64,000 nucleotides of DNA from Macrostomum lignano (Eukaryota), in the NCBI GenBank assembly GCA_002269645.1, contig NIVC01000633.1, positions 248,001 through 312,000 of the forward strand, written 5' to 3'. Of this stretch, positions 7,676 to 14,318 are shown piece after piece; the first letter of the stretch is position 1; every line of letters begins with the position of its first letter. A program made the translations under genes and the position numbers. The notes below the pieces were generated by a model. The model saw only the letters and a list, made by a program, of their open reading frames with translations. It was not told the origin of the DNA and searched no databases.

Positions 7676-8020
7676 CTAATTGAAGCGGGGCTTTTTATTT
7701 ATAGTGCTGAAAATGTCTGAATTGAGACGCTTCGGAGCCTTTTTTCTTCTTCGTCCGCTACCCCTTTGGGTAACCGTGTCTTTAAAGGCGTCCTTGGCAG
7801 CCTGAACAGAATTGCGCAGGACAGACTCCTTCAAATTGCCTCCTTGCTCGAGGCTATCGTTAACAGTAGTTGCTAGGGCTCTAGTACCATGACGGAGAAC
7901 GTTTTTACCAAAACTCTTTAGAATTGGCAGCGCGAAGCGGGCAATGCTTCCAAACAAACCGTTGCCCCTCTGGGCGCCCGCGAAAACAGGCAAAGCTCCA
8001 CCAATCAGAATAGAAGGCAT
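7676..8020 (-). CDS. Small basic virion/core protein with QRGxG motif and amphipathic helix
   Basis: QRGNGLFGSIARFALPILKSFGKNVL..G...KESV and a second QRGSGRRRKK. It lies between the penton and MCP genes. Confidence 0.7.
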   Translation of the reverse strand: MPSILIGGALPVFAGAQRGNGLFGSIARFALPILKSFGKNVLRHGTRALATTVNDSLEQGGNLKESVLRNSVQAAKDAFKDTVTQRGSGRRRKKAPKRLNSDIFSTINKKPRFN

Positions 8021-8063
8021 GATTAAGCACTAGGATATAGTTTACTGAGGCTGTGCTGTTTAT

Positions 8064-9199
8064 TTATAGCTTCTTTTCGCGGATGTTAACGCTCAAGACG
8101 GTCTTGCCCCTCATTACTTTTGTCATATCCCTGCCCATATCATCGTTAATTTGTACTTCAATAGTTTTGAATGGGTGCTTAACCAGCGGTAGATATGCCG
8201 GATTGACAAACTCGTAGTACTCGCGACCGCCCTGAACTTTGGGATCCATCGGTATAGCTCCCAACAGAGGAACTTTAACGTCTCCTACAATAACAGAATC
8301 GACTATGCTCGAATAGATGTACATTGTTTGTATTCCACCGGTTAATTCCATTGATGTGGCTGAAAGTCCGATATACCGAAAAATGGGGTTGTATAATCAT
8401 GCTCTGGGAAACCAAGCATGCCGGTCAAGCGCCCCAGCCCAAACATGTAATCCATCGAGCCAATGTAATAACACCTATTCGTAACTTCGCTGTATCCGAA
8501 AAAGTCCGTTCTAGGTGCTGGAGCCGCTATGAGATCTTTGATCCGTTTCCAAATTAAATCGTTGAGTTCCTCCACCATTCTTTTAGGTGTACTATAGTAT
8601 CCTCCCTGCATAAAAAATATTTGATCAGACGCTGCGCTAGTAACTTGTCTTATTATTGGAGCATGGTCCATTGACTGCACAGTCGGTTCCTCAACAACTG
8701 CGGTGATGGAGGCTGCACACCCCGCGTGTAATACGAGTTCAGTAGGTAGATCCTCATTAGACTCGAAGCCGGCGACTAGTTTAAACACCTTGGGTAGGGT
8801 ATCCGGGAATTTGATGCCGACGGTGGATTTTGAAGTATTCACAATCATAAAGGCGGTTGGGGATGTTCTTAAAAAGACAATTTTCTTATTATCCCCTTCA
8901 ACGTATCGGATACCGTTTAGAAAGCCGGAAATACATTCTTCAGGGGTTTTCAGACCCGCTGCGAGACAAAGGTTTGCAAACGACGAAGCCGTCAAGAGGC
9001 CCTCCTGTTCGCGAATGGTGATCGGTATAGATTTTTTGAAAGATTCAAATTCTTTGGTAAAGTAGATCCGTTCGAGGCAAACCTCATGATTCGGAAAGTG
9101 GAGAGTGTCCGGTAAATTAATAAAATAATGAGCCGGATTATTTTCGGGATAGTGCTCGGGGCACGCATTGCTAGGCAGAAAGAGATGCATGGTAGCCAT
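8064..9199 (-). CDS. Minor capsid protein (penton, single jelly-roll), split by a frameshift at ~8345-8351
   Basis: N-terminus LFLPSN..YPENNPAHYFINLP.TL...EVCLERI. The C-terminal part (8351-8064) is GG..TMYIYSSIV..VIVGDVKVPLL...Y.PL..F.TIEVQI.DD.G. One added base joins the two. Confidence 0.85.
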
Positions 9200-9202
9200 G
9201 CA

Positions 9203-10300
9203 TTAGTTATTATTACGTTGACGTATATTTATAACTTCATTTACAGGTACAAATGAATTAAAAGTGTCGGGATAACCGCGCCAGCTAACGTAATGGTGCG
9301 CAACACCATTTATTAACACGTTTCTACGCAAAACTTTATTGATTACAAAACGCTCGGGTCGGGTAGATTTGGACAGTTCATTGTAGTAAAACCGTCCCTC
9401 AATCACTTCACCAGACAAATCAGAAATACGATAAAAATGTGGGGGTCCAGGACAAACTTTGGATATAATGTACACCTCCTCACTATACATGTCGTACGCC
9501 TCCTTGTCGAATGCCCGCGAGATTTCGAAATTCTCACAAAATCCCCCTTTTTATATACGGGTCGTCTTTTTGCTGATCCGGGTAGAGCTTTTCCCACACA
9601 CGCTTCTGATTGTGGAACCCTACACTTGACGGTTTCATCTCAATAGTAGAATGCGTCGTGTTGTTGTAATTACCTACCAAATTGGTAAGTAGTCAACCCA
9701 ACGCCACGTGTTGTTGTGCTCAAAGTAGCGAGCCAGACGCTTTCGAAGAGTTCTAATCAGCCTCTCGGCCATGTTTGCCTTGTACACAGAGTTGGTGCTG
9801 TACATTTTAACATTATTGTCTTTTAGTATGCGGCGCATTCGCTGATTATAAAACTCGGTACCCCGATCCACGTGCAGGTAAAGGGGGCGGGCAGGGAAAT
9901 CATTCGCCAACATTGACTCAAACGCTGCGGGGGTATCACTCTTTAGTTTAATTGCCCTACAAAAAGCCTGCTTACTAAGCACATCAATAACAACTAGTAT
10001 ATATTTATGTCCGTCATTCCAACGTTTGTATCGCGACATGTCCATCAAATCGGCTTGTAGAGTTTCCATGAATCCTCCCGACATTACTTTTCCCGTTTTA
10101 AATGTCCTGTTGACTCTCCGGTGACGGGTGTAACTCGGTTGGGTTTCTAGCCATTCCCTGGTTTGGCGTCTTGTCAGGTTTGGCGCCAGACGTTTGGCCT
10201 CCTGATAGACACGGGCAGCATTTGAAAAAGCGGCGGCTCCTTGTTCGTAAACTCGACGAAGAGCGGTTAGAGCCCTCATTGACAACAAGTGTGGATGCAC
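9203..10300 (-). CDS. Retroviral-type (rve) integrase with C-terminal chromo-like domain; three -1 frameshifts (~9680, ~9570, ~9515); likely ATG at 10279
   Basis: DDE core QADLMD / HVDRGTEF / AERLIRTL. The continuation reads LVGNYNNTTHSTIEMKP, then VYKKGDFVRISK, then AFDKEAYDMYSEEVY...EGRFYYNEL, and ends KVL....YVSWRGYPDTFNSF. Confidence 0.92.
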
Positions 10301-10412
10301 AGCATGAATAGTTGCACGTAATGTCGGCTGGGGAGTTGTCTACACAAAGCTTTGACGCGGCGGCTGCTGCGCCCATGACCGCCGGGCGCGCGGTTATGTT
10401 TGGACTAGGGTT

Positions 10413-12548: not shown

Positions 12549-12640
12549 GTTGCTGCTGTTGTTGCTGAGAGTGGGTCTCGCACCCTGAGCGCCTCCTTAT
12601 ATACCCTTGTGGCGGAGGGTGGGGTGGCTGGGCGTTTTTG

Positions 12641-13155
12641 TTATAGTCCTTCTTTAACGACACTTTCCGGTGTTGGAAATCCGGAAAAAATAAACCTTTT
12701 GTTTCGATCTTCTGGTCGAGGGGTTTGAGGCGTGTCGTTAATGCAGCTGCAGTGAGGGTTGATAGTCAACTTCGCTAGCACTGGTCTACTGTGTTTAGGT
12801 CGCCAAATCCTTTGGTGTTCCGTCCACGAGGGAGCAATCGGCTGGTGATTCCGGTACCGTATTTTCTCACGATGATCCTCTTGTAATATTGGGGCAATTA
12901 TCTGCTCCATTCTTTGAAGATTGCTTTGAAATGCATCTTGTCTCTAAAGTAGTAGTCAATTCGGGCATCTGTATATTCTTGGGTGCTGTAAGGCCCTTGC
13001 CCAATTTCGTCTACCTCGACATTAAAGGTGACTAATCGTTCGGGAATTGGTTTGCCGTGACAAATGCATAACCAGTCTGTGGACTTTTTCAGGGTCTCGT
13101 ACTCTGCCCTTTCTTTGCTCGATAAAAGCGGGTAGTCTCGAGAAATCCAGCTCAT
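12641..13155 (-). CDS. Two short viral ORFs of unknown function (13155-12898 and 12910-12641)
   Basis: Same-strand, tightly overlapping ATG ORFs inside the element. No family recognised. Confidence 0.45.
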
Positions 13156-13529
13156 TCCTCTGACTCGTCAGATTCGTCGAGAAAGAAATAGTGGAAGAAA
13201 TTGTCGACTCTATTCTTTTCAACTGCACAAAGTATTTTGTCTGACAGGTGAAATTCGCAGTCTCCTTTTACGTACAGGCGCTTCCCGTCGATAACTTTGA
13301 TAGATGCGCCGCCTCCGAGATCGTAATCTGTGCAGCTAGTGCCCAGAAATTTCATTCGATGCCATTGTGCTCGACTAAACACGGCTCCTGGGCAGCTACA
13401 GTTTTGACAGTGGATGCGGAAACGCGGTTTGTTTGGGTCCCAATATCCCACTTCCAACACTGCGTTGTCAACGTGGGTGTACACTATTTCCGATTGCCAG
13501 TGCATTTCGATATTGTTGAGAAATACCAA
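13152..13529 (-). CDS. Small protein, possibly PC4/Whirly-like (likely ATG at 13505)
   Basis: GAVFSRAQWHRMK resembles PC4 KGISLNPEQWSQLK, preceded by beta-strand-like segments, with an acidic tail. The similarity is weak. Confidence 0.4.
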   Translation of the reverse strand: MVFLNNIEMHWQSEIVYTHVDNAVLEVGYWDPNKPRFRIHCQNCSCPGAVFSRAQWHRMKFLGTSCTDYDLGGGASIKVIDGKRLYVKGDCEFHLSDKILCAVEKNRVDNFFHYFFLDESDESEE

Positions 13530-13539
13530 TTTTATTTAT

Positions 13540-14318
13540 TTATAGGCAGCCGTCTGAACAGATTTCCAACCATTCCCTCCACTGTAGAACGGTTCTCTCA
13601 ATTGATAAAAGTAAATACGCCGCTAGGAGCCCCGGTTGCTGCTGCGCGCTTCGTAAAGACAGTTGAGATATGTGTCTCTATTTGCATACGCAAATGATAC
13701 GGGTTCTGGCAGAATCCGGTTGAGCAACTTTGATAATAACAACCTAGCAGTTCTACCATTGCCGTCGCTAAAGGGGTGTATGGTGAGAAACTTTTCTAGG
13801 AAATATGCTCCTGTCACTACTGCATCACGCAAGATTTGTGGCTCTTTTATGTCTCTAGTTAATTTTACCAGCTGCCGTTCAATATTTTCTGGGGCACTGT
13901 AATACACACTCGCGCCTGCTGGCTTGGCGTGCTTAATTCTATACGATCCCGCATTCGGGAGCAGTCCTCTGCACACGCGTGTGTGAACTTGTCTAACAAA
14001 CTCTGTGTCAATTAACCCCCTCGTGTCATTGAGGTGTATTGCCGCACTCCATAGATTGGCTGTGACCATACAGGACCGGGTTTTTATCGCTTCTTCTGCT
14101 TCCTCCCAAGTCAACGCCACCTCTCTCTCCTCAATGTTTACTTCAGTTACGAATGCCAGCCGGGCTAGATGTGTGAATTCTAAGCGCTCCTTTGCGGTCA
14201 ATCCCTCGATTCTTTTCCTAGTGTCTGATAACAATCTTTCAATGAGGGGTAATCTGGCGCGCACGCTCTCGTTGCTGAAATAGGGGTTATCAGTTATACC
14301 CTCCTCCATGTTCTCCAT
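13540..14318 (-). CDS. Fic-domain AMP-transferase; a frameshift at ~13626 hides the last ~28 aa
   Basis: Canonical HPFSDGNGRTAR motif, plus VHTRV...AGSYR and an N-terminal EVNIEE. Adding one C gives ...NRGSLAAYLLLSIERTVLQWREWLEICSDGCL* with the stop at 13542-13540. Confidence 0.93.

Follow-up and report, generated by a model that had tools for sequence, protein, structure and literature searches.

The element, its genes and its relatives

The window analysed here is a stretch of 64,000 nucleotides from the genome of Macrostomum lignano (contig NIVC01000633.1, positions 248,001 to 312,000 of the forward strand). It carries a Polinton-like element of 10,524 bp, which occupies window positions 4528-15051 on the minus strand and has the termini ACTACTATA...TATAGTAGT. 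A short box, TATAAATA, recurs along this element; its sequence context suggests that it serves as a promoter element of the late genes, and the element also contains a frame for a protein resembling the TATA-binding protein (TBP) that may read it.

Inverted repeats of about 640 bp delimit the element, which is flanked by a 6-bp target-site duplication. Contigs of one public run (X2) hold the empty insertion site, a joint of 4521 to 15052 with six shared letters; this means that the insertion at window 4521-15052 is polymorphic. Every gene is on the minus strand. The order is Fic, two open reading frames (ORFs) of no known family, the 226-aa ORF, the TBP-like frame, the 129-, 208- and 92-aa ORFs, integrase-chromodomain, probable minor capsid, a basic 114-aa ORF, major capsid, protease and ATPase (Table 1).

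The terminal inverted repeats, the 6-bp duplication, the retroviral-type integrase and the capsid/protease/ATPase module are those of Polintons (Mavericks). In sequence comparison, the proteins of this module show 27-42% identity with those of the same genes in pPolB-bearing elements of this genome. Polintons have 5'-AG termini. The terminus here differs, being ACTAC in families A and B versus AGTAG in families P1, P3, T1 and T3. Neither room nor an ORF for pPolB was found between the repeats of the window copy and of the four other family A copies with a 5' end examined, and the family B loci gave no pPolB match. Judged from its gene content, the element is Polinton-derived and lacks pPolB.

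Here, family A denotes the family of the window element and family B a sister family about 75% identical to it. Full capsid copies in the genome number about 15 at 99-100% (family A) and 16 at 87-88% (family B), and distant polymerase-bearing Polinton lineages have capsids of about 30% identity. Two of the latter were compared: lineage P, which bears dUTPase/PLA2 and comprises four families, P1-P4 (loci L021-L030 and L061-L065), and lineage T, which bears an exonuclease and comprises five families (L027-L028 and L041-L052). No loci of relatives beyond this genome were found in viral contigs or metagenome contigs, so that the boxes are known from this genome alone; protein searches beyond it gave 2, 4 and 5 matches, all lacking genomic context.

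Five frames are broken in the window copy and intact in other copies. Since public contigs differ from the window at the broken frames, an assembly error is likely. The integrase (359 aa) and the minor-capsid frame (376 aa) are each open in three of the five other family A copies. The major capsid protein gave no Pfam match, and the 117-, 171- and 208-aa ORFs could not be assigned to a function. The 92-aa ORF is the first ORF after box 4 and overlaps the integrase start, so translation of the integrase may depend on leaky scanning; the MGAAA start of the 92-aa ORF is a possible myristoylation motif.

Table 1. Features of the element in window coordinates
Feature	Position (strand)	Remarks
Terminal inverted repeat, element 5' end	14396..15051	
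Variant box CATAAATA	14342..14349 (-)	31 nt upstream of Fic ATG
Fic-domain gene, broken in window copy	13540..14318 (-)	Pfam Fic 4e-14
Box 1, TATAAATA + AATAAA	13537..13544 (-)	39 nt upstream of 117-aa ORF
117-aa ORF	13152..13505 (-)	not seen in family B loci
171-aa ORF, split in window, whole in other copies	12641..13155 (-)	start overlaps preceding stop
Candidate early host-type promoter, GC-rich box CCACCCCACCCTCCGCC + TATATAAG	12596..12628 (-)	
226-aa ORF, probable gp2.5-type single-stranded-DNA-binding protein with basic tail	11868..12548 (-)	fold match, weak
Candidate 67-nt intron	11942..12008 (-)	putative donor AAG/GTAGG, acceptor TTGCAG/
TBP-like frame, no in-frame ATG at start	11468..11941 (-)	PDB, Atlas and Pfam matches
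Box 2, TATAAATA + AATAAA, intergenic	11448..11455 (-)	upstream of 129-aa ORF
129-aa ORF, amphipathic C-terminus	11040..11429 (-)	related ORFs in pPolB-bearing P lineage
Box 3, TATAAATA, within 129-aa ORF	11159..11166 (-)	129 nt upstream of next gene
208-aa ORF in other copies, broken in window	10413..11037 (-)	terminates TAT AAA TAG
Box 4, TATAAATA	10414..10421 (-)	45 nt before 92-aa ORF; 142 nt before integrase ATG
92-aa Cys-rich ORF, starts MGAAA	10098..10376 (-)	overlaps integrase start; kept in family B
Retroviral-type integrase + chromodomain, broken in window	9203..10279 (-)	Pfam rve 5e-10, Chromo 0.04
Box 5, TATAAATA, no AATAAA	9226..9233 (-)	in integrase 3' end, upstream of minor capsid gene
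Probable minor capsid, broken in window	8064..9199 (-)	position and likeness to P-lineage slot
Box 6, TATAAATA + AATAAA	8061..8068 (-)	48 nt upstream of 114-aa ORF
114-aa basic ORF, probable core protein	7676..8020 (-)	from position and composition
Box 7, TATAAATA + AATAAA	7696..7703 (-)	in 114-aa ORF, 57 nt before major capsid gene
Major capsid protein, 427 aa	6363..7646 (-)	27-33% identity to capsid-slot ORFs of pPolB-bearing Polintons
Adenain-like protease, no box	5929..6366 (-)	Pfam C48 E=0.06; start overlaps capsid stop
Variant box TACAAATA + AATAAA	5935..5942 (-)	48 nt upstream of ATPase, in protease 3' end; conserved in family B
Packaging ATPase	5265..5894 (-)	stop overlaps AATAAA at 5269
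Terminal inverted repeat, element 3' end	4528..5168	

Number, conservation and position of the boxes

A first-pass annotation of the window had listed six TATAAATA sites on the minus strand, at 13544, 11455, 10421, 9233, 8068 and 7703. All six are present, and a seventh exact site at 11166, inside the 129-aa ORF, had been overlooked. In the element interior (9.2 kb) the coding strand carries seven sites and the opposite strand none; the maximum among 1000 dinucleotide shuffles of the interior was three, and any 8-mer attained at least seven copies in only one of 200 shuffles. The enrichment over shuffled sequence that the annotation proposed as a check was also found for the whole window, with 9 matches against 1.75 expected and none of 100 shuffles attaining 9.

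The spacing of 20-50 bp to the next ATG that had been claimed holds roughly: counted from the first T of the box, the distances at the six sites, in the order given above, are +39, +16, +45, +30, +48 and +57. However, the first ATG after the boxes at 11455 and 9233 is the start of a short out-of-frame ORF, and that after the box at 10421 starts the 92-aa ORF, not the integrase. When the ATG common to family B is taken as the start of two of the genes, six of the seven boxes lie 39-57 nt upstream of a gene start, for which the chance expectation is 6% of positions. The remaining box lies 129 nt before its gene, and no ATG occurs from +20 to the gene start. Three of the seven boxes are within coding sequence and three overlap stops. 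Among the variants claimed, CATAAATA before Fic could be retained, whereas TATATAAG at 12603, before the 226-aa ORF, was rejected as a variant of the box and placed in a separate promoter class, since it looks different in kind. A further variant, TACAAATA, stands ahead of the ATPase.

Conservation across copies, also proposed as a check, is complete among the copies listed: all seven boxes occur in the five other family A copies and in the four family B copies, where the 5'-most box, in a rearranged region, was matched through a short flank only. It should be mentioned that family B lacks Fic and the 117-aa ORF, and that its 5' end retains a TATAAATA box beside a partial duplication of the early promoter region (L014:3300-3880 and other B copies). 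Between the two families, four-fold sites are only 38% identical (239/625), ATA is kept in 7 of 13 cases and AAT in 38 of 56. In the three in-gene boxes, all nine synonymous positions are unchanged (p about 0.003), and random recoding gave three in-gene boxes in 2 of 3000 trials. In the poorly aligning spacers before the 129-aa and 92-aa ORFs, the boxes at 11455 and 10421 form islands of identity. The TACAAATA box before the ATPase is preserved in both families as well. On this pattern of conservation, the TATAAATA box is almost certainly a real, selected cis-element.

The geometry was examined with 50 of 61 boxes from nine families, namely those with the main ORF no more than 170 nt away. The median distance from box to main ORF is about 52 nt. 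Of the ATGs of short ORFs, 17 fall in the 1098 nt at +6 to +27, against 8 in the 1831 nt between +33 and the main start (p=0.002). In family B, for example, an out-of-frame 72-aa ORF begins at +18 and overlaps the minor-capsid start. With looser box patterns, the first ATG at or beyond +31 opens an ORF of at least 60 aa at 62 of 91 boxes, compared with 868 of 2491 random positions. Because ATGs of short ORFs are tolerated up to +27 and depleted beyond +33, the box seems to be a promoter box at -30 rather than an initiator; in other words, this distribution fits, indirectly, a transcription start near +30, as for the TATA box of RNA polymerase II (Pol II). The TATA consensus of this polymerase is TATAWAWR, and TATAAATA matches it at all seven sites. 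In baculovirus TAAG and poxvirus TAAAT late initiators, transcription starts within the motif. A start inside the box is disfavoured here, indirectly, by the tolerance of out-of-frame ATGs at +7 to +27. On this evidence, the box is likely a promoter element at -30.

The box had also been described as one cassette of about 10 bp in which one transcript ends and the next begins. Its overlaps with stop codons were confirmed. The TAA of the box at 8068 terminates the minor-capsid frame, that of the box at 13544 is the Fic stop in all five other family A copies listed (259 aa in three), and TAT AAA TAG at 10421 terminates the 208-aa ORF in two of these five. AATAAA is indeed present at 13544, 11455, 8068 and 7703; at 7703 it lies within the 114-aa coding sequence, about 20 nt upstream of the stop. 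On the coding strand AATAAA occurs 11 times versus 5.25 expected (11 of 1000 shuffles attain 11), and it also overlaps the protease and ATPase ends. Contigs of two runs from different studies, guessed to be RNA, end at 8064 and 8065. This is a weak hint that would fit a branch placed about 25 nt past the AATAAA belonging to box 6; among the contig rows listed there was no loose poly(A) end. AATAAA overlaps just four of seven boxes in family A and two of seven in family B, which weighs against the general form of the proposal, as does the location of three boxes in coding sequence; furthermore, AATAAA cannot fall within the P or T box sequences. The part of the proposal that concerns transcript ends is thus weak. 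To judge from their sequences, box 6, box 7 and the ATPase variant may plausibly double as promoter and poly(A) signal, but this is not a general rule.

The TBP-like gene and the boxes of other lineages

The frame at 11468-11941 matches an archaeal TBP in PDB (E=0.0016), and 20 further matches among 22 rows are TBP. It falls in Atlas TBP clusters (0.94; 10 of 10 Atlas families TBP) and matches Pfam TBP at 9.5e-5 with 22.6 bits, slightly under the cut-off of 22.9. By sequence it resembles the two-repeat TBP domain (PF00352), with repeat 2 clear and repeat 1 weak. The frame is open in 23 near-identical family A matches. Its identity with the core of the host TBP is 20%, and several DNA-contact residues are changed.

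The 226-aa ORF was considered as the TBP-like protein and rejected; it gave no TBP match, and its single-sequence fold (pLDDT 35) was uninformative. Another, low-confidence model of this ORF (pLDDT 47) matched best the African swine fever virus (ASFV) protein CP312R (Z 4.4, rmsd 5.5, 135 residues aligned), followed by T7 gp2.5 (Z 2.9) and the Enc34 single-stranded-DNA-binding protein (SSB; Z 2.4). The modelled fold makes a gp2.5-type SSB the probable identity of the 226-aa protein, albeit weakly.

The TBP-like frame has no ATG of its own at its start. Families A and B differ in frame offset, which led to the rejection of a programmed frameshift into the frame, and a true ATG start was rejected as well, the first Met of family B falling within the fold. 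The Met of P0001, judged from the protein record alone, aligns with a TTG codon of families A and B and is probably a gene-caller start. In the 226-aa ORF a candidate donor follows codon 180, and an acceptor in phase 0 lies just upstream of the first TBP strand. Both are conserved in families A and B, and the length between them varies. In all six homologues of the 226-aa protein, conservation reaches as far as an invariant IKV at the donor, and the sequences diverge beyond it. In the P loci, a TATA-type promoter is followed by an SSB-like gene that has a plain intron and, in its tail, a GTRAG donor; next come a pyrimidine-rich acceptor and the TBP frame. This donor and acceptor are present in all five P loci, with the acceptor in phase 0 in four. 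Contigs of four public runs yielded neither a splice joint across the candidate intron nor start or end sites of transcripts; contigs drop rare forms. Taken together, these signals make it quite probable that the TBP-like protein is made by splicing from the SSB-like 226-aa gene. Trans-splicing onto the acceptor, with the terminal ATG of a leader as the start, is a possible alternative route; flatworm spliced leaders with a terminal ATG have been described, as far as the consulted part of the source goes (PMC12582326). In the P loci L061-L065, the intron of the SSB-like gene is of a clear conventional type, and the TBP-like frame is followed or overlapped by an ORF resembling a P-loop kinase.

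The candidate promoter of the 226-aa gene resembles host HSP70 promoters. In seven distinct upstream regions of the latter, TATAAAAG is found in six and TATATAAG in one. The module of GC-rich box and TATATAAG recurs near-identically before a gene of lineage T that we take to be PC4-like. The CCACCCC..CTCCGCC + TATA module was located at window 12596-12628, L047:1320-1356 and L051:1272-1304; family B lacks the GC-rich part. Just downstream of the early TATA, a 24-nt stretch (12567-12590) matches the terminal repeat at 14519-14542 at 96%, and it is absent from the family B promoter.

De novo k-mer counts on the coding strand gave each lineage its own enriched AT-rich word: TATAAATA in families A and B, TATAAGY in lineage P and YWTAAGA in lineage T. 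TATAAGY ranks at or near the top in three P families and seventh in P1. The words precede the same gene classes in A/B, P and T. Strict counts on the coding and opposite strands are 7/0 in A, 6/0 in B, 5/0, 7/0, 10/0 and 5/0 in P1-P4, and 7/0, 7/1 and 7/0 in T1, T2 and T3; T4 and T5, which are close to T2 and T3, were left out of these counts. YTTAAGAA, TATAAGY and the conserved TACAAATA depart from TATAWAWR. The TATAAGY and YWTAAGA boxes have a common TAAG core. A reversed box considered in lineage P was rejected, being the edge of TATAAG.

With a profile built without any P sequence, TBP-like frames were detected in all five P-lineage loci (E from 7.5e-14 to 1.5e-10), and the T families carry a TBP-like frame too. 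The notion of P-lineage elements without TBP was therefore rejected; the TBP-like gene lies upstream of pPolB. As read from these sequences, all three lineages examined pair a TBP-like gene with their own box. More than 100 multi-copy TBP-like matches occur in the genome, and most of those examined are within Polintons, so that confusion with host TBP paralogues is possible.

Other observations concern the copies and their surroundings. Families A and B form a Polinton lineage of many copies that was mobile recently; it has the integrase and the capsid module and no DNA polymerase. Two family B capsid regions on one contig (L020 and L079; C1313) are inverted and about 8 kb apart. The element lies inside or beside a host gene whose exon-like frames at window 15500-16400 (minus) resemble a sulfotransferase.

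Reading of the boxes and comparison with known systems

The reading favoured here is that the box is the late-promoter core of a two-tier programme run on host Pol II. In the first tier, the host-type promoter (GC-rich box and TATATAAG) would drive the SSB-like 226-aa gene, and splicing from the donor in its tail to the acceptor before the TBP frame would yield a protein with a TBP-like domain. In the second tier, this protein would bind the box of its lineage about 30 nt upstream of the starts of virion, integrase and packaging genes, by analogy with the herpesviral TBP mimic at TATT boxes. The tight end-to-end packing of the genes places the boxes on stop codons or within the upstream gene; at boxes with AA behind them, AATAAA may be added, which would be a local economy and not the defining job of the box. 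For the whole of this, that is, boxes read by the element's TBP-like protein in a two-tier late programme, we estimate a probability of roughly 55% from the sequence patterns. The first-pass annotation had called the box the obvious cognate site of the TBP-like protein. This claim gains from the TBP-like genes with their own boxes in two more lineages and loses from the canonical form of the box and the loss of two phenylalanines, and is unproven. Its further description of the circuit as self-contained is too strong, because host Pol II is required, the TBP exon is on a separate host-type promoter and there is no DNA polymerase.

Several points weigh against the favoured reading. Host TBP could read TATAAATA without help, since the box conforms to the canonical TATA consensus. 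The TBP-like protein retains two of the four intercalating phenylalanines and neither threonine; the alignment of the first repeat varies between two comparisons, the second of which finds only the third phenylalanine invariant. ORF24 of KSHV (Kaposi's sarcoma-associated herpesvirus) requires all four phenylalanines, according to the section of PMC12529657 that was available. Contigs of run X5, guessed to be RNA, run unspliced across the candidate intron and four boxes other than box 6 (contigs of X5 and X10 do not include the outer repeats), and the pyrimidine tract of the family A acceptor is weak. In T2-T5 the TBP-like gene itself is behind the lineage box, which is unexpected under a simple early-to-late cascade. 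The P and T box patterns were picked from the same sequences in which they were later counted, so that the weight rests on strand bias and positions rather than on the counts. Three lineages are also too few for demonstrating co-evolution.

The boxes might instead be ordinary host TATA boxes, read at -30 by host TBP/TFIID as in adenoviruses and alphaherpesviruses; the TBP-like protein would then act otherwise (as a decoy, a repressor of host TBP partners or in DNA bending) or would not be made. The perfect consensus match, an intact canonical TBP in the host, the absence of an own ATG and of half of the key phenylalanines from the TBP-like protein, and the presence of TATAAATA in one host H4 promoter all agree with this. 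However, the box is invariant despite near-saturated synonymous divergence, whereas host promoters vary: H4 and HSP70 promoters show varied TATA forms, with TATAAATA in 1 of 19 distinct upstream regions (1 of 12 H4 regions). The conservation of TACAAATA is left unexplained, and lineages P and T use non-canonical boxes at equivalent gene positions. Reading by host TBP alone is considered rather unlikely on balance. Several host histone H4 promoters (L081-L094) have no TATA match and carry a TACTTA-type sequence at about the same place. It seems extremely improbable that the box simply results from constraints on amino acids and stop codons (Ile-Asn-Lys runs, CTA TAA) where gene ends are AT-rich. 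The boxes in coding sequence or on stops would suit such an origin, but the recoding and synonymous-site results speak against it, the box at 11455 is purely intergenic, and the corresponding positions in other lineages carry boxes of another sequence.

Borrowing from a helper virus, whose RNA polymerase would use the boxes as late initiators, was also weighed: late promoters of poxviruses are similar to TAAAT, and those of baculoviruses to the TAAG core shared by the P and T boxes. Families A and B lack a DNA polymerase and hence need something in trans, and virophages use promoters of their helper, as stated in the part consulted of bioRxiv 10.1101/2022.07.28.501842. The ATG distribution, with the family B ORF from +18 over the minor-capsid start, speaks against initiation inside the motif; three boxes in one host would require three helpers, and the predicted introns of spliceosomal type point to nuclear Pol II. 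This explanation is therefore held to be improbable. About equally improbable is a chief function as a 3'-end signal (AATAAA or its TATAAA variant), with downstream genes expressed through operon-like RNA and trans-splicing. The AATAAA excess on the coding strand, the position of each box near a gene end or boundary and, as a weak hint, the contig ends near box 6 are in line with it, and about 30% of the genes in the likely host are trans-spliced (PMC8629364, in the portion consulted). On the other hand, the scarcity of AATAAA at family B boxes and its absence from P and T boxes are not expected from such a signal; box 3, about 125 nt before the stop of its own gene, would truncate that gene; the invariant part of the box is the 5' TATA, not the 3' AAA; and, by direct reading, most downstream ATGs have no acceptor-like site nearby.

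The lineage-specific boxes paired with TBP-like genes suggest, on sequence grounds, that these elements run their own late-gene switch. A bolder version, put forward tentatively, is a private switch in which one divergent TBP domain, alternatively spliced onto an SSB, diverged together with the late box of the lineage (TATAAATA, TATAAGY or YWTAAGA). If so, each of the lineages co-resident in one nucleus would activate its own virion genes alone, and late transcription could be coupled to replicating DNA through the SSB domain. A single protein would then be the counterpart of the late complex of herpesviruses, and the endogenous elements would be wired as staged viruses. If the pairing is true, the range of viral TBP mimicry, with large herpesviruses and giant viruses at one end, would reach down to elements of 10 kb, and nature would supply TBP variants of altered sequence preference. 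Should the boxes be read by host TBP, the promoters of the element would still have been mapped. A conserved box and an element-coded TBP-like protein offer a direct handle on the expression of capsid genes in animal Polintons; Maverick particles have not been observed so far (PMC8097293, in the part consulted).

No description of a promoter box or of TBP-driven late transcription in animal Polintons was found in the literature searched, which did not extend to figures, supplements and subscription papers. TBP or TATA is not mentioned in the consulted portions of PMC11161782, PMC11296320, PMC8097293, PMC10748475 and 10.64898/2026.06.19.733378, nor TATA or promoter in that of PMC5803895. The main text of PMC8502044 does not mention promoters, splicing or polyadenylation; TBP-like genes in MELD elements appear there, in the part available, as a figure label only.

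With Polintons, Mavericks and adintoviruses as described in the part consulted of PMC8502044, the element has in common the inverted repeats, the 6-bp duplication, the rve integrase-chromodomain and the capsid/protease/ATPase module. It differs in lacking pPolB and in having ACTAC termini instead of the AGTAG of the polymerase-bearing lineages of this genome. Virophages and Polinton-like viruses (Mavirus, Sputnik, PgVV; bioRxiv 10.1101/2022.07.28.501842, same portion) likewise have one repeated motif before many same-strand genes, in a small capsid-coding element whose genes are read as monocistronic units. Their motif is that of the helper, whereas here a -30 geometry, predicted introns and an own TBP-like gene are found. 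Compared with cellular TBP (PF00352), the protein has a TBP-like fold by sequence and a box that fits TATAWAWR, but the low identity with the host core and the replaced DNA-contact residues noted above set it apart.

The closest working logic is that of beta- and gammaherpesviruses, whose TBP mimic (ORF24 in KSHV; PMC12529657, in the section available) is also a virus-coded TBP-fold protein serving a TATA-like box before structural genes, with host Pol II and host-type early promoters. The likeness is one of working logic only, and the element is not a member of that system. According to the same section, ORF24 is large, binds Pol II through its N-terminal domain, acts in a six-protein complex and requires its four phenylalanines, whereas the element would have one small divergent TBP domain with two of them, probably spliced to an SSB-like domain. 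In place of the herpesviral TATT, the box is a canonical TATA in families A and B and non-canonical in lineages P and T.

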